The notes below the pieces were generated by a model. The model made no database searches. It had not been told where the DNA came from and saw nothing but the letters and a program-made list of their open reading frames with translations. A stretch of 64,000 bases of DNA from Octopus vulgaris (Eukaryota): contig OX597828.1 in assembly GCA_951406725.2 (NCBI GenBank), positions 6,076,001-6,140,000 on the forward strand. The letters are read 5' to 3'. Below are positions 16,371 to 63,935 of this stretch, piece by piece (the stretch's first letter is position 1; each line of letters begins with the position of its first letter). The translations under genes and the position numbers were made by a program.

Positions 16371-17484
16371 TTTCGTCGAGATTCTCAGGGTTATTCACGT
16401 TATGTATAAAGTTGTCACAAGTAAAGTCTGCAAAGTTCTTTCGATCCTATTTTGAGGTATTTCAGTTAATTTTGTCTTCTTATCACGATTTGCAAACATT
16501 TGTGCATCTGGTGTATCTGGACATCTACACTTTACATAATATCCTTTTCAAGGTTCTGCGACCTAACAGAGAGCATTGGAGTTGCCCTTGCTGCGGAAAC
16601 ATAACCACAATGTTATTAATAGACTAAATATTCCCAAGAACTCTGTGGAAGATGTTAAATAGACCGACAGAATTATTCGCCTATTTAAGGAGAAAATGGC
16701 TCGTTCCATGTACTTCCGCATTGTTTCCTGTCGCGAAGTCTTTGTTTCAACGCTTTAAACACCACGTGGCTTTGGTTAGAAACATTTACACATGTCACTG
16801 CCATGCAGAGGGTCAAACTTCAATACTTGTTGTTGCAAAACGATCTCATTAGCACATAGAATGTATGTGCGAACTTGCAATAGCGATTTAACGATCGACA
16901 CATTGTACAAAATATCGAACTACTTATTCCAAAACCCTGTTAATGGCGATTAACTGTAACACCTCTTTCGTTGATCATACCAATGTTTGATTGATATTCA
17001 TCAAAGGTACTTTATGATCTCCCTTAAATTTGTCTACGCTACCGATGCTAAAGTAATGTATGCTGACTCAAAATAGATACAGAATTATGTTGTTTTGTTG
17101 TATTAAATATTTACCAAAATATGACTTATTAATATAACAAATATATTATATATCGTTGCGCAAATATATGTTTATATATGAATGTGATTGTTTCCTCAAA
17201 TATTCTCCATCTTCGGTTACAGTGTGTTTTCGCGGAAGACCATAGAAAGTTAATACATAAGTAGAGGTAAAGTACACAAGATGTTCTATATACATAAAGT
17301 AACACAAAAGTCATGATATCCAGACTCACCTTCAAATACAAAGAAGACATCTTTGTGCCATTCCCTGAGCAAGACATTGTAAAAAATATTTACCTATTAA
17401 TATACAAGTTGATCTATCTATCAGTCTGTCTGCCTCTCTGTATCTCTCTGTCGTTTTGTATATACGTACTCTTTTGTTGTATTA

Positions 17485-17676
17485 TTTATTTCAGTTATTT
17501 GATTGCGGTCATGCTGGAGCACAGCCTTGAAGGGTTTTAGTCGAATAAATCGATCCCGGGATTTATTTTTTTGAAAGCCTAGTACTTATGTTTTGGTCGC
17601 TTTAACCGAGCCGCTAGGTTACTGAGACATAGATACACTAGCTGCGGTTGTCGCAGATACAAAATCATACACATAC

Positions 17677-17758
<82 letters not shown>

Positions 17759-17923
17759 CGACGAGTTTCTTTCAGTTTCCGTCTACTAAATCCACTCACA
17801 ACGCTTTGGTCGGTCAGAGCGTATAATAGAGAATACTTACTCAAGATGTCACGCAGGGGGACTGGACTTGGGACTAATGTGGGTGAGAAGTAAACTTCTT
17901 ACGACTCATTCACGTCTGCGCCT
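17485..17923 (-). mobile_element. SINE family B with an expanded internal (TA)n
   Basis: Colinear with the 29380 and 57577 copies. Confidence 0.85.
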
Positions 17924-17969
17924 GAGTATGTGCAAATATATAGGGGTGTTGCGGATTCGAGGAGTCGTT

Positions 17970-28029: not shown

Positions 28030-28541
28030 AGGAACAAGGCCTGAAATTTGGGGGAAGGTGATAGTCGATTACATCGACCCCAGTACTCAACTGATAGTTG
28101 AATTATCGGTCCCGAAAGGATAAAAGGCAAAGTTGACCTCGTCGGATTTGAATTCACAACGTAAGGGCAGAAGAAATACCTATTCCTTTACTACCCACAA
28201 GGGGCTAAACACAGAGGGGACCCCAGTGCGTAACTGGTACTTAATTAATCGACCCCGAAAGGATGAGAGGCAAATTCGACCTCGGCGGAATTTGAACTCA
28301 GAACGTAACGGCAGACGAAATACCCCTAAGCATTTCACCCGGCGTGCTAAAGTTTCTGCCAGCTCGCCGCCTTATAAATACCTATTTCTTTACTACCCAC
28401 AAGGGGATAAACACAGAGAGGACAAACAAGGTCAGACAAACGGATTTAGTCGATTACATCGACACCAGTGCGTAACTGGTACTTAATTTTTCGACCCCGG
28501 AAGGATGAAAGGCAAAATCGACCTCGGCGGAATTTGAACTC
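28030..28541 (-). mobile_element. Head-to-tail trimer of SINE family A units
   Basis: The GAGTTCAAATTCCGCCGAGGTCGA...TCATCC core occurs three times (the oldest degenerate); junctions read AATAGGTATTT on the minus strand. Confidence 0.85.
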
Positions 28542-29379: not shown

Positions 29380-29785
29380 CTCTCTCTTTACTTGTTTCAG
29401 TCATTTGACTGCGGCCATGCTGGAGCACCGCCTTTAGTTGAGCAAATCGACCCCAGGACTTATTCTTTGTAAGCCCAGTACTTATTCTATCGGTCTCTTT
29501 TGCCGAACCGCTAAGTGACGGGGACGTAAACACACCAGCATCGGTTGTCAAGCAATGCTAGGGGGACAAACACAGACACACAAACATATACACACACACA
29601 CTTATATATATAAATACATATATACGACAGGCTTCTTTCAGTTTCCGTCTACTAAATCCACTCACAAGGCATTGGTCGGCCCGGGGCTATAGTAGAAAAC
29701 ACTTGCCCAAGATGCCACGCAGTGGGACTGAACCCGGAACCATGTGGTTGGTTAGCAAGCTACTTACCACACAGCCACTCCTGCG
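29380..29785 (-). mobile_element. tRNA-derived SINE family B, full length (CORE-like CTTGGGCAAGT motif)
   Basis: Minus: CGCAGGAGTGGCTGTGTGGTAAG (A box), GGGTTCAGTCCC (B box), internal TA/TG tract, tail CAAATGACTGAAACAAGTAAAAGAG. Confidence 0.93.
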
Positions 29786-30253
29786 ACTGAGGAATTTTTT
29801 TTTTTTAAACAAGGATATGTTTCTGCAATATGTTGGTAACTTTCATGAAACCCTTTTGAAATGCCAGTGAAGATTCGGTGCCAGTTAATGACTAAAGGAA
29901 TTCTATCAGAACTTTTAGTTTGATTGTTAAAATTATGTGGGGAATTTTGACTTACCTTGCTTATTTTAGTTATGTCATTTGCGATTTTCTTTAATCGTGA
30001 TTCACAGTAACCGTGTTTAACATAACTGTGTACAAAAGCATTTGCATGTCTCCAGTAAAATTGTGACAGAGTTATTTTGCAATCCTATGTCAACCCACAT
30101 TTACCTTCACTGCCTCTTCGATCAATCACATTATATCATTCGGTGAAATCCGAATTCTCAGTTTTTGAGGGTAAAACGAATTTGTTCTAATAAAGAGGAA
30201 ATACTGGAAACATGCAAATATTTCTGCCAAATCTCCGCCTTAATTAATTCATT

Positions 30254-38002: not shown

Positions 38003-38217
38003 ATTGGTTTCAAATTGTGGCACAGGGTCAGCAATTTCAAGGGTGGAGTAAGTCGATTACATCGACCCCAGTGCTAGGCTGGTAATTATTTTACTGACTC
38101 CAAAAGGATGGAAGGTAAAGTCGACCTCAGTTGAATTTCAACTCAGAACCTGAAGACAGACGAAATGTCGCTAAGCATTTTGTCTGGCTTGCTAACAATT
38201 CTACTACCACGCCGTTT
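38003..38217 (-). mobile_element. SINE family A
   Basis: AAGTCGATTACATCGACCCCAGT...AAAGTCGACCTC...CTCAGAAC...GCTAAGCATT. Confidence 0.85.
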
Positions 38218-41287: not shown

Positions 41288-41497
41288 GTTAGCACGCCGG
41301 GCGAAATGCGTAGCCGTATATCGTCTGCCGTTACGTTTTGAGTTCAAATTCCGCCGAGGTCGACTTTGCCTTTCATCCTTTTGGGGTCGATAAATTAAGT
41401 ACCAGTTACGCACTGGGGTCGATGTAATCGATTTAATCTGTTTGTCTGTCCTTGTTTGTCCCCTCTGTGTTTAGCCCATTGTGGGTAGTAAAGAGAT
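41288..41497 (+). mobile_element. SINE family A, A2 tail subfamily
   Basis: GAGTTCAAATTCCGCCGAGGTCGACTTTGCCTTTCATCC...TGTCCCCTCTGTGTTTAGCCCATTGTGGGTAGTAAAG; imperfect TSD TATCTTACTT/TATCTTGCTT. Confidence 0.9.
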
Positions 41498-44411: not shown

Positions 44412-44792
44412 GGGTGCAGGCGTGGCTGTGCAGTAAGCTTGCTTCTCAACCTCATGGTTTTGCAGGCGTGACAGTTTCTCAGCCTCATGGTTTTGAGTTC
44501 AGTCCCACTGCGTGGCTCCTTGGGTTAGTGTCTTCTACTATAACCACGGACGGACAAAAGCCTAGTGAGTGGATTTAGTAGACGGAAACTGAAAGAAGCC
44601 CATCGCATATATATATATATATATATGTATATATCTATGTGTGTGTTTTTTGTCTCTGTTTGTCCCCTCGTCATCGCTAGCTAACCAGTGTTGGTGTGTT
44701 TATAACGCTTATATAATAGCGGTTCGGCAAAGTGACTGATAGTATAAGAACTATGTTTCAAAAATGATTCCTGGGCGCGACTGGTTCGACTA
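44412..44792 (+). mobile_element. SINE family B with a short duplication in the head
   Basis: TTCTCAACCTCATGGTTTTG and TTCTCAGCCTCATGGTTTTG; GAGTTCAGTCCCACTGCGTGG; GACGGAAACTGAAAGAAGCC. Confidence 0.85.
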
Positions 44793-45264
44793 AATCTCTT
44801 GGATGACTGTCTTAATTTCGTTCCCTTATGATAGAGACAAGGAATTTTGTCTTCTTTGTAATTCTGAACCATTTTTATACTTTTTTCTAAACATCCCCTT
44901 GTAAACGCGGTTATATAGCGTTCATATGGATGTAAGCATTGGCAGAAACACACCTTTAGTTCATATAAGTGAAATCTATCACTATATATAATTTAAACAT
45001 TGATTTTCTTCTTACATGTCACTTTCACTAGTTATATCTTTTCCCAAGAGTTTAGGGTTTTATTCAATTTCCATATCGTTCTATACTTCTTATTTAAATA
45101 GGTTTTTGATTTTTTCTTTCCTTTATACCTCCAATTTCTATAGGCTACCTTTGACGTTATATCCTCTAACGTGTTATTTTAAAAAAATTAATAGCGTTCA
45201 GATCTTCAATTTACATATCTATCATATTCTGTTAAAATGTCTCACTGACGAGTTTTATTTCTTC

Positions 45265-45522: not shown

Positions 45523-45934
45523 AAGCGCGCTTTAACAGTGGACATAGATGAGTGGTTGAGAATTTTGCTTGTCATCAATGTGATTTCGGTTTAAATGACA
45601 AGGTACGCCTCAATGGACGAGTGCCTTCAACGAAAGCTTAGGGTTGAACAAAATAAAAAAATCCAAGCCAATGATTGTGGCACATGCATATGTTCGCGTC
45701 CGCTTTTCATTATGTCTAATACCTATATGTCCCAGCAATGCAGAGGTTCCACAAAGATATACATTGTCTTTATATTCTAAATGAATGAATGAATATTCTA
45801 CTATGAGCATCCCATGCATTGCTGCAGTCCTGAAGCAAGGGAGTATATATTTGCATATATAATATGCATACATTCAAATATGAGTGTCTGTGTAGATTAC
45901 ACATACTAGCCAATATATATATATATATATATAT

Positions 45935-46927
45935 GTACATACTTACATCTGTACGTATATACATATGCATATGTGGGAACAGGACGTCTGAGAATGTAAA
46001 CAACATAAAAACACGTAAACATGATTACCAAATACAAATATAAAGAATATGGACTTCTTTTTCCAACAACGAAAGAAACAAATGGAAAACAAGACAAGTA
46101 ACATAACGAAGGACCCTTCATCAGCTGTCGGCTGTTTTTCTAATTCGTATTTCGAGCAATTCAACGGCAAGACACGCCTTCGATAAAACAGTTGCTCTCA
46201 CAAAGCAAATTAAATAAAATTTGGGATTTTGCAGAGCGTCAAAAGTTTCACCAAAACAGGATAATAAAACAAAAAGGAGGGGTGCTAACCCTAAACGAAG
46301 TGAGGTGGCGAACGCAGAGAAACAAGCTTGGACAGACGACAAATAAGAATGGGTCTGATTCATCCAGCTACAACAGAAAAAAGAAAGAAACACAAGTTAG
46401 GAAAAGAAAGAAAGAAAGATAGCCGATGGTCACGTGGGAGCAACATGAGCAAAGGAGGAAGAGTGAGGAAGAGAGAGTGGGAGACAGAGAACTGTGAAGA
46501 GGAGAGAAAAAGATCTGGAGAAAGGATTAGAGGGAAAAACAAGAGGGGGAGAATCTGAGGTAAAAGAATAAGAAAAAGGAAGAGAGAAAACGAAAGAGTA
46601 CTAGGATAAAATAGAGTGATGCATCAGAATTATTAAGATAAAACTTACTTGGAAAAGGATGCCTAGCGTTTAATCATATAATAATATAAATAATATATAT
46701 ATGCATATATATACATATATATATCTACATACATCTATACGTATATACATATGCAGATGTGGGTACAGGACATTATGGAATGTAAACAACATAAAAAAAA
46801 AACATGAAATACGAAATACGAATACATGGAATATGAAACTTTTTTGCAACAACAAAAGAAACAAATGGAAAACAAGACAAGTAACATAACGAACGACCCT
46901 TCACCAGCTGTCGGCTGTTTTTCTAAT
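45935..46927 (-). mobile_element. Non-autonomous repeat family F with ~200-bp direct terminal repeats (pseudo-LTR or partial tandem, Penelope/retrozyme-like)
   Basis: 45935-46145 and 46725-46927 are direct repeats around a purine-rich middle; flanked by (TA)n; homologous to 51971-52290 and 52960-53405 on the other strand; no ORF. Confidence 0.75.
46113..46176 (-). ncRNA. Hammerhead ribozyme core with non-canonical strand order, copy 1
   Basis: CGTGTC|TTGCCGTTG-AATT-GCTC GAAA TACG-11 nt-CAGCCGACAG CTGATGA A GGGT; all three stems can pair (one mismatch and one bulge in stem I). Confidence 0.6.
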
Positions 46928-49900
46928 CTGTATATATGCATAAAAATATGCCACAGGACCTCCCACAATTAAACACAATATCTATGCATTGTTCAAGCCA
47001 AATCAGGTTACCTGTGAAGAAAACCAAGAAAATCAAACAATACCAAAGTAAGTGATCCCCACGATCTACGCATCCACAAATATAGTCCACTTTACAATAA
47101 TGGAAGGCAACCCAGAATAACGAGACTAGGATGTAAAAAATTCCCAATCGAGAATAATATATATATTCTCATCATCAGCTGACAAAACGGATATCACTAT
47201 GCTTGTGACACCTGTCCGATACAATTCAATCCGGTGGTGTCTTCAGCATTAAAAACATAAATGTCGCTTGGCAATCCACCAGATGGTTACTACAAGTAAC
47301 AGCATTATGTTAAACAAAAATAGTGATAATTTATAGCTAGAAAATAGTACTTTTGACAAAGACCTAATTCAGACAATACAACAAACATTGACAGCTAGAT
47401 ACGTTGTTCCTCACTCAACATCACATAACGATATATATGGATTCTTTTATGGAACTTTAGGCCTCGAAGAACGTTACATAAAGCTATAAATAATAGCATG
47501 TCAATAGTCGAGGGATAATTTGGTTGATGTGTCTCGAGAGCCAATCTTGAAAGAACAAACAAAAGAAAAAAGACAATCATTTCATGTCTCAAAAGTTTTT
47601 AAAATACTTATGACATCGAGAGTATATATAGTTATGTGTGTGTGTTTGTATGTGTGTGTGTATTGTCTGTGTCTGTGTGAGAGAGAGAGAGAGTGAGAAA
47701 GACAGACAGACAAATACAGAGACAGTGAGATAAGTGATGGAGTTACAATACAACACCCTCATACACTGTACCCCATTCACTTCTCTCTAGCTTTACACTT
47801 TCATTACCTTAGTGTGAGCGTATGCACATTTGGCTAGAAACAGGTTTGTATATTTAACAGTTATAATATATGAATAAGGTCTTGCACACGTCTGTACATA
47901 AATATATAGACATGGCATTCACTATATGAGCGTGTGTATGTGTGTACTTTGTGTCTTTGTGTGCGTGTATGCACGCGTGTGTGTGTGTGTGTTCGTGTTA
48001 CAATTATGTATATCGATGTTTTATCCAGTAAATATACTCGCGAACCACAGCCTGACACATTGATATGTTCACAATGACACATACATATGTGTAAGTTTGT
48101 GAATGAAGATATGCGCAATCACTGTTGCTACATGTATTTACATATATTGGTATAATGAATGAATATATATGTATATGTATGTGTCTGTGTGTGCGTGTAC
48201 ATTTGAACATATAGATATTTATATGCTTGTAGATGTATGTATATGTGTGTGTATATTTATGTATTTATGAATGCACTTATGTATGTTACGCATACATACA
48301 TATATACATAATACGCACAGAAATGCATGTTTACTTTAAAAGAAAGCTAAATCCACTGGATTGTCAGGAGAGTATTTAAATATAAAACAAATAGAATTTG
48401 AAAGTGGGTTACGTCTGAAAATCACTCGCTTCAACTAAATAATATTGATTTAGAAGCTTTTCATGGAATGATATTTGTAGTTGGCTTAATCCAATAAATA
48501 AACACGTCAGAAGAACAAGTATTTATTTCACAGTTTTGCTTTTTTGGCTTTTACTTATTTGACACAAAATCGTGGAAGAAAGAGAAAGCTCTATGATTGA
48601 TGAAAGCAGGAGCGAAAATCCGAACCAAAAAGCAGAAAAATATGTATACACAAGAAAGCGTTATATTAAATTTCGCTGGAGATATTTTTTTAGGAATCAA
48701 TATTAAACAGAGAATGAGAGACTGAAAGAGAGTATAAGAAAGATAGAGAGAGAGACTGAGAGAGATATAGCAAGTGAAGAGCGAGGAATGAAAAGAGAGA
48801 AAGGGAGAAGAAAGGCAGGAATAAATGCAGAAAGTTTGCGTAAGAAAGAAAATATGAAATGGTAAGTTCTTTGATAAGGGCGAAACTGAACCAGATTTCT
48901 GTAATGATATATTTTATTAACGCATCAATCAAATGTTTGGATCAAACTGGTTGAAGCCGATTTAATCAATGCTAGTTATATTACATTACTTCTAATATCG
49001 ATTCTATATTCTTGAAATCATCAATTCTGCTGCTGTGTATTACGATTGCGTAAAAAGTGAAAGCTGGTGCCCTGATACTGCAAAGCAAATAATCCAGATT
49101 CCATAATATATTTAAAAAGTAATTCCATGAAATACATATAGAGCTAAAATCAAATGCCTTGTTATTACTCGAATTGGTAGTGCATGAAATCTTCTCTTGA
49201 ATGCGACATTTCAGGATGTTGTCTGTGATATATGTTGCAGTGATTTAATCACAAAACCGCTTACTCTCTTTGTTTTCCGCTAAAGCTGGTGTTTATATGC
49301 CTCTTAATGATAATCGCTCATGTATACTACAAAAGGTCCGTGATTTTATGAACTAACATCGTCCGAATTATTTACTTTCGCTGAAATAAGGTAAATATAT
49401 CGGGGCTGCATATATCATAAGGATAGTCTCATTGGAGTTTTGCACATGTTCATTGCATCGAAGTGATCTATCGGTTGAAGCTACCCATTTCTTCATGATC
49501 ACACACGGGAGTTTGTATCAGCATAAATAGATGAATACATGCATCCTTGCATTCCAGGTTTTCGTTAAATTCGAAGACATTAGCCTATCTTTCTTTGATT
49601 TTCGAAGGACTCCTAGTATCTTATTCTATGTAATTTAATATATCTATGTTGATAGGCAATGTTCACTTCGGCATTGAGCATGTCGATATCTCTTATGCAG
49701 AGTGTACTAAGTTCATGGTATTTTTATTAAACAACTGGTAGTTTAAATACATTTTAGGTAAGCGTTATGTTCTCAAATATGGTGTAAACAGTTAGCTTGT
49801 ACTTTTCGCTGGAATCAATTTATACTAATCATGAAAGATCTTTTTTTCAAAATAACACTTATGACTAAGCTTTTATTCACAAGTGCTTCATTTTTAGCGC

Positions 49901-51970: not shown

Positions 51971-52290
51971 ACCCCTCCGCAAAGAAATCTCAAATATTAT
52001 TTAATTTGCTTTTCGCGGGAAGAAATGTTTCATTAAAGTCATGTATCGCCTTGACCTTCGAAATGTGGAGTAGATGAAACAAAGGCGACTGAAGAAGGGG
52101 AATTTTTCTTGTATTGTATGTCCTGTAGTCTATTTTTCCGTTGTTTAAGAAAAATGTCCATTTACTTGGTTTTGTGTTTATGATTTCGTTTCTCATTGTG
52201 TTCGACGTTTTTTTTGTTTGGTGTCCTGTACCCATATATGCATGTATATATACATGTAGAGGTAGGTACGTACATATATGTATGTATATA
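51971..52290 (+). mobile_element. Family F copy (divergent)
   Basis: TTATTTAATTTGCTTT, CTGAAGAAGGG and TCCTGTACCCATATATGCAT are colinear with the reverse complement of 45935-46240. Confidence 0.75.
52040..52100 (+). ncRNA. Hammerhead ribozyme core with non-canonical strand order, copy 2
   Basis: CATGTA|TCGCCTTG-AC-CTTC GAAA TGTG-12 nt-CAAAGGCGA CTGAAGA A GGGG; stems pair despite a different sequence from copy 1. Confidence 0.6.
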
Positions 52291-54267: not shown

Positions 54268-54721
54268 ATCTTTTCTACTATAGGCACAAGGCTTGAAATT
54301 TAGAGGAGAGGATAATCAAATACATCGACGCTAGTACTTAGCTGGTACTTATCATATTGACACCGAAAGGATAAAATGCAAAATCGACCTCGGCGGGAGT
54401 ACGTGGAAACGGACAAAATACCGCTAAGCATTTCACCCAGCTCGTTAACGATTTTTTTCTTTACTACCCACAGGGGGAGGGGGGCTAAACACAGAGAAGA
54501 CAAACAAGGACAGATAAACGGATTAAGTCGATTATATCGACCCCAGTGCGTAACTGGTACATATTTAATCGACCCCGAAAAGATGAAATGCAAAGCCGAC
54601 CGCAGGCGGTATTTGAACTCAGAACGTAACGGCAGACGAAATACGGCTACGCATTTCGCCCGGCGTGCTAACGATTCTGCCAGCTCGCCAGCTCGTTAAC
54701 GATTGTATCAGTTTGCCGCCT
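54268..54721 (-). mobile_element. Older SINE A containing a nested younger A2 copy (54454-54687) with 17-bp TSD
   Basis: CCAGCTCGTTAACGATT duplicated at 54437-54453 and 54688-54704. Confidence 0.88.
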
Positions 54722-54952: not shown

Positions 54953-55114
54953 GTTACAGTTCTGTTCAGTACTACTATCAAAACTACTATTATCATCTCT
55001 CATGGAATTGTAGTTAGCCTTCTATCATTTCACATTTGATTAAGAAAGCCACCATACGGATTACATTACAAGTTTAGGAAGATATTGTACATTTACTGCA
55101 AAAAGGTAAAGATA

Positions 55115-55511
55115 GGCGTAGGAGTGGCTGTGTGGTAAGTAGCTTGCTTACCAGCCACATGGTTCCGGGTTCAGTCCCACTGCGTGGCATCTTGGGCAAG
55201 TGTCTTCTGCTATAGCCTCGGACCGACAAAAGCCTTGTGAGTGAATTTCGTAGACGGAAACTGAAAGAAGCCTGTCGTATATATGTATATATATATATGT
55301 ATGTGTGTGTGTGTTTGTGTATCTGTGTTTGTCCCCCTAGCATTGCTTGACAACCGATGCTGGTGTGTTTACGTCCCCGTAGCTTAGCGGTTCGGCAAGA
55401 GAGACCGATAGAAAAGTACTGGGCTTGCAAAAGAATAAGTCCCGGGGTCGATTTGCTCGATTAAGGCGGTGCTCCAGCATGGCCGCAGTCAAATGACTGA
55501 AACAAGTAAAA
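55115..55511 (+). mobile_element. SINE family B, full length
   Basis: GGCGTAGGAGTGGCTGTGTGG...GGGTTCAGTCCC...CAAATGACTGAAACAAGTAAAA. Confidence 0.93.
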
Positions 55512-57576: not shown

Positions 57577-57789
57577 TACTCTCTTTACTCTTTTACTCTT
57601 TTACTTGTTTCAGTCATTTGACTGCGGCCATGCTTGAGCACCGCCTTTAGTCGAGCAAATCGACCCCGGGACTTATTCTTTGTAAGCCCAGTACTTATTC
57701 TATCGGTTCTCTTTTGCCGAACCGCTAGGTGACGGGGACGTAAACCCACCAGCATCGGTTGTCAAGCAATGCTAGGGGGACAAACACAG

Positions 57790-57820
<31 letters not shown>

Positions 57821-58007
57821 TATATATATATATAAACATATATACGACAGGCTTCTTTCAGTTTCCGTCTACCAAATCCACTCACAAGGCATTGGTCGGC
57901 TCGGTGCTATAGCAGAAGACACTTGCCCTAGATGTAACGCGGTGGGACTGAACCCGGAACCATGTGGTTGGTAAGCAAGCTACTTACCACACAGCCACTC
58001 CTGCACC
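57577..58007 (-). mobile_element. SINE family B, full length, with (TAAAAGAG)n tail
   Basis: Near-identical reverse complement of 55115-55511. Confidence 0.93.
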
Positions 58008-58799
58008 TATAAGTTTCTTTTATTTTATTTCTTTGGATCTAGTTTTTATTTGATGCGCAAAATATGCATTTTTTAAAAGGGAGTATAGAATCGGCTATAA
58101 TAATGTAGCATTTCAGTCTCATTGCTTTGAAGGTATAATGTGGTAGAGAAAAAATTGGAGTAAAAAGTTACAGAGGTGTAAAAATCGAAACCCTGAGTAT
58201 TTTTAGCCAGTAGCAAGCCAGAAATTTTCTGCATTTAGCAGAACGGTGTCAACTTTGAGGCTGTACACTGTGAAATTTATAGTTTAGCGTCTGACAGAAA
58301 TACCCAATTAAACCAACATGTATCATCTTACTGTTTCTTTTGTCTCTTCATTGACAGTATGTTTTTTATCATTTAAAAACATTGTCATATTACTATATTT
58401 GTCTTCATGTGTTTACTATATGCGTACTTCAGTATTATGTATACCTGCCATGTATTTTCTACATCATAAATATATAAGTGTAATTGTGTGTGTTTGCATG
58501 TGTGTAAATAGGAGCGCCTGTCTCCAAAACTCCAAAGTTGAGTAACGTTTTCAGGCTTGGATTTGTAAACTACAATACAAAAATAGCACTGGTCAACAAA
58601 GAATTTGTCCCAACGAAGAGAATACATGCATCTCAATTTTTTGGCATGCAGAATTCAAAAGTAATGTCAAATTATTTGTATCACCTACAGTTTCTCTGTT
58701 CCATGATATCTCTCGCAGTTCCTGTTACTTGTGCTAAATTTCAGTTAAGCTGCTGAAATGTGAATACTCATAATTAATTTTTTTGTGAATAGAATTAAC

Positions 58800-63720: not shown

Positions 63721-63935
63721 AAGGCGGCTAGCTGGTAGAAACGTTAGCACGCTGGGCGAAATACTTAGCAGTATTTCGTCTGTCTTCATGTTCTGAGTTC
63801 AAATTCTGCTGAGGTCGACTTTGCCTTTCACAATTTCGGAATCGATAAATTAAGTCGCAGTTGTGTACTGGGGTCGATCTAATCAACTGGCCTCCTCCCC
63901 AACAGTTTCTGGACTTGTTCTTAGAGTAGAAAAGG
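63721..63935 (+). mobile_element. SINE family A, full length
   Basis: AAGGCGGCTAGCTGGTAGAAACGTTAG (A box), GAGTTCAAATTC (B box); imperfect TSD ATTTCCTTCAACC/ATTTCCTTGAAACC. Confidence 0.88.

Follow-up and report, generated by a model that had tools for sequence, protein, structure and literature searches.

Reverse-order hammerheads with a predicted upstream stem II strand in Penelope-type repeats of Octopus vulgaris and in Naiad retroelements

Introduction

In the genome of Octopus vulgaris, a hammerhead motif with reversed strand order is present in thousands of copies. It occurs in non-coding Penelope-type repeats that target (TA)n (family F), of which 15 subfamilies were sampled, and at the 3' ends of Naiad retroelements. 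This occurrence is new; the reversed order itself is already known as type SGC (PMC10085705). From the sequence comparisons presented below, the balance leans towards a broader reading: (i) the motif would add a seventh topology to the natural hammerheads, with its backbone open between A9 and G10.1 and its stem II strand upstream, and would be active in thousands of animal retroelement copies; (ii) reverse-order hammerheads, i.e., the split form and type CSG, would be the ribozyme that a large part of the Naiad clade seemed to lack, in corals and nematodes as well as in octopus; (iii) the 5' edges of truncated copies would be a genomic record of the cut site.

Hammerheads were described by blocks S, G and C by Eckert et al. 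2023 (PMC10085705), and types SGC and CSG were validated in vitro, the latter being published from only two sequences. Type SGC was shown there to require a fourth helix, which joins stem I and stem II strands. The paper also assumes that CUGAnGA is never separated from its stem II strand, i.e., that the block is indivisible. Both types are known from metatranscriptomes or metagenomes, and the genomes of known organisms are represented in that paper by one GCS candidate only. The initial annotation of the window had tentatively taken the reversed topology as undescribed, which is corrected by this description and validation of the S-G-C order. In the open-licence literature of PMC and bioRxiv, no report was found of reverse-order hammerheads in animal genomes or Naiads, nor any precedent for a break between A9 and G10.1. 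The available part of Perreault 2011 likewise gives no precedent for that break, and the available part of PMC13725137 only cites Eckert et al.

Naiads were reported without canonical hammerheads, some of them being flagged 'core' or 'half core' (Craig et al. 2021, PMC8557442). The same paper describes the insertion anatomy of Penelope-like elements and Naiads, i.e., (TA)n targeting, partial tandems, inverted 5'-truncated copies and 3' tails, and calls the function of Penelope-type RNA cutting unclear. Animal non-LTR retrozymes are non-coding tandem units with one hammerhead each and are thought to come from Penelope-like pseudo-LTRs; type I descriptors were the only ones used to define and search for them (Li, Clavereau and Pollet 2026, 10.64898/2026.07.22.740005).

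Results

The motif in the window

The window, i.e., the whole stretch of 64,000 nucleotides that was analysed, is (TA)n-rich animal DNA from a genome of 2.8 Gb. The hammerhead motif that it contains is real: on the minus strand, from 46176 to 46113, every core element named in the initial annotation is found at its place and in the named reverse cyclic order (Table 1). That extent is incomplete, two helices using 21 nt upstream of its start (46197-46185) having been missed. The statement that the motif escapes type I-III descriptors agrees with the reversed order and with the Rfam scan of the window (0 matches).

Table 1. Features of the window and of the young family (positions are those of the window unless loci are given)
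Feature	Position	Strand	Remarks
Full family F unit, subfamily F1, 785 bp	45913-46697	-	non-coding, ends in (TA)n
5'-truncated tandem F1 copy	46697-46933	-	begins some 20 nt beyond the cut site on its 3' side; mutated core; pseudo-LTR-like partial tandem
Decayed 3' end of octopus-type Naiad	46946-47430	-	abuts the family F insertion
Stem II 5' strand (G10.1 side)	46197-46192	-	upstream of the cut site; 6 Watson-Crick pairs with 46159-46154
P0 5' strand (fourth helix, stem I-II clamp)	46191-46185	-	7 Watson-Crick pairs with 46138-46132
Stem III' and cleavage triplet GUC	46176-46171	-	predicted cut 3' of 46171, between 46171 and 46170
Stem I' strand	46170-46165	-	one C.A mismatch in the window copy
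Block G: stem II 3' strand (II'), GAAA, stem III strand	46159-46146	-	
Block G, detail	II' ends at 46154; GAAA 46153-46150; III 46149-46146	-	
P0 3' strand	46138-46132	-	1 nt before the 6-bp stem I strand
Stem I strand and CUGAUGA core	I 46130-46125; CUGAUGA 46124-46118	-	
Extra A and G-rich strand	46117-46113	-	stem II partner of the initial annotation; weaker alternative; kept in all F subfamilies
Second member, subfamily F7	52019-52095	+	same layout, other stem sequences; GUA site, predicted cut 52045/52046
Young 777-bp family	loci L251-L270, motif near 1600-1690 in oriented loci; also L010, L038, L094		

The window copy is slightly decayed: besides the C.A mismatch of stem I, it has G.U where the subfamily majority has a Watson-Crick pair. 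Its cleavage triplet is GUC vs. AUC in the subfamily majority. The core (CUGANGA, GAAA and UH site) is present in the window copy and in all 15 subfamily majorities, CUGANGA and GAAA being demanded by the search pattern and UH not being fixed in place.

Nested MFE folding gave z of about 0, i.e., no unusual stability; pseudoknots cannot be drawn by nested folding. The folding of both window copies exposed a further helix (P0), in which the 5' flank pairs with the G-C linker. Two other candidates were rejected, i.e., a closing hairpin round the window copy and a self-complementary stretch after CUGAUGA, each of which hangs on a base private to that copy. The F7 copy on the plus strand is joined to (TA)n at about 51971. 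An unrelated dispersed repeat of 400 bp has at least 5 copies in the window (29382-29788, 55112-55511, 57596-58010, 17467-17926 and 44480-44794), and a SINE-like repeat of 150-200 bp has more than 10 (e.g., 28219-28541, 41288-41494, 54458-54689, 63721-63888 and 38046-38213).

Family F and its copy number

Units of family F are 770-836 bp long, non-coding and ended by (TA)n; they occur also as solo truncated copies, partial tandems and inverted pairs, with short 3' tails. Of the traits of Penelope-like and Naiad-type elements, (TA)n insertion, partial tandems, an inverted truncated copy and a 3' tail are thus all found. Tandem arrays were met, e.g., at L091, which has three motifs 832 bp apart that are 100% identical over 500 nt, and at L256 and L259. 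A young tandem family of 777 bp (97-99% identity, 3095 candidates) has the same split layout. An 80-codon ORF running into the core was rejected as coding: it has no Pfam match and is open in only 4 of 20 copies. Intron-like GT..AG signals (donor, branch point, pyrimidine tract and acceptor) lie in the window unit near 46652 and 46368 on the minus strand, with similar ones in the F9b and young-family units; no splice joint was seen in the RNA contigs. Family fragments are present in the contigs of all runs, which show neither RNA ends nor strand, and were not used as evidence.

A 301-nt query gave 4281 candidates in the genome; 40 of them were scored, and copies other than that of the window have 83-87% identity. 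A pattern with GAAA before CUGANGA gave 6398+4330 matches (10,728) in the genome vs. 112+260 (372) for the reversed control. Among the 100 matches listed, about 85 belong by eye to the family F group (some appearing twice), 11 come from a Penelope family with an ordinary type I hammerhead, and the other 4 are spurious. The excess over the control and this share of the listed matches lead to the conclusion that the copies of the group number in the thousands. In the fetched loci, 111 of 131 pattern matches were classified into the 15 subfamilies, and 20 were left unclassified and unaligned. More old repeats with GAAA before CUGANGA were seen at L131-L134, L140, L147 and L153; these may belong to the group as more diverged copies. 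The genome also has ordinary type I hammerheads of the Penelope style, often as inverted pairs (L035, L046, L047, L058 and L096).

Subfamily F1, judged from its sequences, is old. Among 30 BLAST-chosen copies, 20 have an intact core, and 6 have the core with three fully paired stems. Core identity in these copies is barely higher than that of the rest (0.964 vs. 0.939), as expected from neutral decay after insertion; the subfamily majorities keep the full core. Most genomic copies, the window copy probably included, would be decaying passengers.

An autonomous partner of family F was not found in GIY-YIG and Naiad thumb searches of the genome. The GIY-YIG search, in which 150 of 6136 candidates were scored and 30 loci were read, led to a Penelope-like element with an ORF of 781 aa, a C-terminal GIY-YIG, many intact copies of the ORF and a (TA)n end (L107, 1-1791 on the plus strand; L112 and L130). 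These are the only intact Penelope-type ORFs seen; the element is apparently active and could act in trans. It was rejected as the partner proper, no family F end being found on it, and no intact hammerhead matched the filter in the 1.5 kb after its ORF.

Covariation of stems I and III

Two alignments were used. Outside the 'Split' group there are 104 copies; 19 were removed by hand (5' truncation or block S deletion), and the other 85 form A1. A2 contains 72 F-group copies, 11 Naiad rows misaligned by MAFFT in A1 and 2 rows with no upstream homology having been dropped. In both, core invariance is partly built in by the search pattern.

With the three stems of the initial annotation, A1 is 89% paired and has 187 two-sided changes vs. 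72±12 in shuffled alignments; pairing falls to 35-55% when the stems are slid. A2, scored for the upstream stem II and for stems III and I, is 93.6% paired and has 241 two-sided changes vs. 85±16 (27-43% paired when slid). Partners were also permuted among subfamilies, identical stem pairs being collapsed: stem III gives 36/40 (p=1e-5) and stem I 29/30 (p=0.0015). All permutation p-values are optimistic, as the subfamilies are kin and their independence is overstated. The stems that flank the core, i.e., I, II and III, are kept by compensatory change in A1, A2 and the subfamily tests, and four helices covary (stem I, upstream stem II, stem III and P0). The stem covariation proposed as a check is therefore obtained for stems I and III, and for the stem II then drawn it is obtained at the copy level, where shuffles are exceeded, and not at the subfamily level.

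Stem II and the fourth helix

A strand directly before P0 is complementary to II', with 5-6 Watson-Crick pairs in 13 of the 15 subfamily consensuses, and begins 22-29 nt before the cut in those 13; the two exceptions are consensuses from 2 and 3 decayed copies. Its duplex energies in the 13 consensuses are -5.7 to -8.8 kcal/mol vs. -0.7 to -4.6 kcal/mol for the downstream strand, i.e., the G-run after the extra A, drawn as stem II by the initial annotation, whose pairing is mostly G.U. The upstream subfamily permutation gives 22/24 (p=0.011, from six combinations, two of them taken from poor small-sample consensuses), and the downstream one 18/20 (p=0.17; p=0.21 in a second run), or 8/20 with Watson-Crick pairs only (p=0.57). 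At the copy level, upstream stem II alone has 58 two-sided cells on A2 vs. 27 shuffled; downstream stem II is 93% paired, with 29 two-sided cells vs. 16 shuffled. The four deep groups have four different upstream sequences, each of them strongest with its own II'. The pairing with the G-run is thus, on these comparisons, probably a minor one. In the young family, an additional downstream alternative for stem II follows an insert of 4-5 nt; a switch between two partners is thus possible there.

P0 was judged by duplex energies and left uncounted on A2, because its register is inconsistent there. The energy of cognate P0 duplexes is -123 kcal/mol vs. -84 kcal/mol for permuted ones (p=7e-5 for the 15 subfamilies, p=0.0012 for the 9 deep groups). 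In the F subfamilies, 0-3 nt separate the stem II strand from the start of P0, and 1-4 nt separate the end of P0 from the five counted pairs of stem I, which is the geometry of the I-II clamp of Eckert et al.

Naiad retroelements

In the Naiad remnant of the window, the same ribozyme fold is present as a dead copy at about 47240-47172, with GAAA mutated. This repeat is near-identical to the published 3' end of Naiad_Ovul, and its relatives carry RT remnants upstream. Of 20 loci obtained with a Naiad RT fragment (RVT_1, E=2e-4, below the Pfam cut-off), 6 show the same fold 3' of the ORF. The thumb search gave remnants only (longest open frame, 292 aa) and no intact Naiad ORF. The 3' ends of the Naiad_Obim and Naiad_Ovul consensuses show the same fold, and stem I of the octopus Naiad is nearly the same as that of subfamily F4.

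The 54 Naiad consensuses of the supplement to PMC8557442 contain, among the CUGANGA passages listed there, at least 14 reverse-order motifs by eye. Their names were deduced from adjacent headers and from the order of the file. The split order is seen in eight of them, i.e., three from Acropora, one from part 9, two from part 12 and the two octopus elements; the other six, in the nematode section (consensus file parts 13-16), read as clean CSG-order hammerheads with a flanking clamp. By eye, the Acropora and part-9 motifs have the upstream stem II partner only, the downstream one being absent. In several arthropod passages of the same file, CUGANGA fits neither order by eye.

Three observations count against the Naiad link: no intact Naiad ORF was met, the only intact Penelope-type ORFs are those of the 781-aa family with the C-terminal endonuclease, and family F has no detectable sequence similarity to Naiad 3' UTRs outside the ribozyme. 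With F1 and F9b units as queries, nhmmer found in 15 Naiad loci only an inserted F copy and (TA)-rich ends, with a best co-linear E of 0.29.

5' junctions of truncated copies

Cleavage of the RNA before reverse transcription should leave truncated copies that begin at or just after the cut. Copies joined to (TA)n within 28 nt before GAAA gave 719 and 427 matches with two complementary patterns, and 0 with the controls. Junctions were placed by a script in 40 loci, i.e., the first 20 new rows from each of the two match lists: 35 lie downstream of the predicted site, 2 at the site and 3 upstream (one of these calls being an internal TA run), so that 37 of 40 are at or 3' of the predicted cut, with a mode at +7. 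By eye, the 200 matches listed correspond to 190 distinct family loci, 174 of them at or after the site; 16 junctions are upstream, where they spread over about 17 positions, 15 fall on the site itself, and 159 are downstream, within about 12 positions. These calls are approximate, the script having exposed at least one miscall.

Searched with the first pattern type, the adjoining 22 nt towards the 3' end gave 231 matches, and a 29-nt interval further 5' gave 81, a count that covers F3-F9 only. Junctions per base, from 5' to 3', are thus roughly 3, then 55, then 10, given that the patterns differ in strictness, that only (TA)n junctions are counted and that TA microhomology shapes the peak. 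The peak is at +6 to +9 and not at 0, and the step follows the predicted site in subfamilies of differing sequence. Such a step is the footprint expected of in vivo cleavage and constitutes indirect evidence for it.

Discussion

Proposed fold and its alternatives

The strand order predicted is 5'-II-P0 ... III'-NUH-I' ... II'-GAAA-III ... P0'-I-CUGANGA-3'. With an upstream stem II strand, the backbone would be opened between A9 and G10.1, and the order would be a circular permutation of the SGC/CSG/GCS cycle opened at that point. Folding likely takes place within one RNA molecule, stem II being formed by the strand upstream of the cut. Each of the two crossing linkers would match a validated form, i.e., III to P0 in SGC and P0 to III' in CSG. 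The element transcript would likely be cut after 46171, and cleavage would release unit-length or 3' RNAs, which a Penelope-like reverse transcriptase would copy into (TA)n sites as far as the cleaved end, where it would run off. The family itself may descend from a Naiad pseudo-LTR. That a reverse-order hammerhead was active in the source lineages is, from the sequences, very likely. It is also probable that the motif is a cis fold with the upstream stem II, in a non-coding Penelope-type repeat whose RNA it cuts; within this full explanation, there are good reasons to take the split stem II as the main active form. The cis pseudoknotted fold with a site after GUC, one of the two possibilities of the initial annotation, is supported by the same comparisons.

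The motif could also be a plain type SGC, in which the active stem II is formed by the G-rich strand after CUGANGA and its extra nucleotide, the upstream strand being competing or regulatory. Validated SGC ribozymes also carry one extra nucleotide at that place, and the S-G linker is within the published range of 0-8 nt (PMC10085705); the G-run is kept, with one two-sided change. The weakness of its mostly G.U pairing, its subfamily permutation (p=0.17-0.21), the absence by eye of a downstream partner in the Acropora and part-9 Naiad motifs and the position of P0, which adjoins the upstream strand, make this reading unlikely. The other possibility of the initial annotation, a strand-swapped dimer between tandem units, has a parallel in the minimal hammerheads of Penelope elements, which act as dimers, and the tandem arrays of 770-836 bp units would provide the material for it. 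Nothing requires such a dimer: the strands needed for the cis fold all fall within about 80 nt, counterparts of both crossing linkers occur in cis-cleaving SGC and CSG ribozymes (PMC10085705), and stem III is not palindromic in most subfamilies, so that it is very improbable.

It may further be considered that the fold is kept for recognition by the reverse transcriptase or endonuclease, as a pause signal for the former, or as a ribozyme relic, the 5' step then coming from RT stalling. The junction mode at +7 and the weak core conservation within the family would fit. On the other hand, all subfamily majorities keep the full core and the UH site while the stems turn over, and the step tracks the predicted site across subfamilies of differing sequence. 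Moreover, little structure would be left when the RT reaches I', because the downstream partners of I' have already been copied. This explanation is judged quite improbable.

Comparison with known hammerheads

Hammerhead types I-III are three-way junctions in circular permutations of the C-G-S order, and the order of family F is reversed. With types SGC and CSG (HRIMA-1), family F has in common the reverse cyclic block order, the short I'-II' linker, a helix between stems I and II and an intact core. As in type SGC, S and G are followed by I-CUGANGA, with an I'-II' linker of at most 8 nt, and the extra helix of stems I and II is present; here P0 adjoins the upstream stem II strand and not the downstream one. 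In type SGC the stem II strand comes directly after CUGANGA; in family F a weak, G.U-rich pairing may form there, and a stronger, covarying partner lies upstream. The published RNAMotif descriptor of type SGC, as it reads, has no insert or U after CUGAUGA, where family F has A. Compared with the six types of Eckert et al., a stem II strand upstream of block S splits block C, which is excluded there by assumption.

The octopus Naiad has the same 3' ribozyme layout as family F, which has no ORF. Non-LTR retrozymes are, like family F, tandem non-coding units with a hammerhead in each; they have type I, whereas family F units (about 780-830 bp) are often 5'-truncated and carry a non-circularly permuted form. 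Minimal type I hammerheads were reportedly described in canonical Penelope-like elements by Cervera and de la Pena in 2014. They share with family F the position near the element 3' end and the extra nucleotide after CUGANGA; they have the opposite cyclic order, whereas family F has four helices and no palindromic stem III.

Significance

If the proposed reading is true, non-circularly permuted ribozymes move from anonymous metatranscriptome contigs to animal genomes, in high copy number, and the added layout breaks a block held indivisible in the published scheme. The break between A9 and G10.1 would be a structural surprise, because it lies at the edge of the catalytic core. The 5'-junction step would provide genome-scale evidence on where Penelope-type RNA is cut. 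Since the whole class is missed by standard descriptors and Rfam, the counts of animal ribozymes are likely too low. Reverse-order hammerheads would also explain the proliferation of Naiads with no canonical hammerhead, a large group of animal retroelements that seemed to lack a ribozyme.
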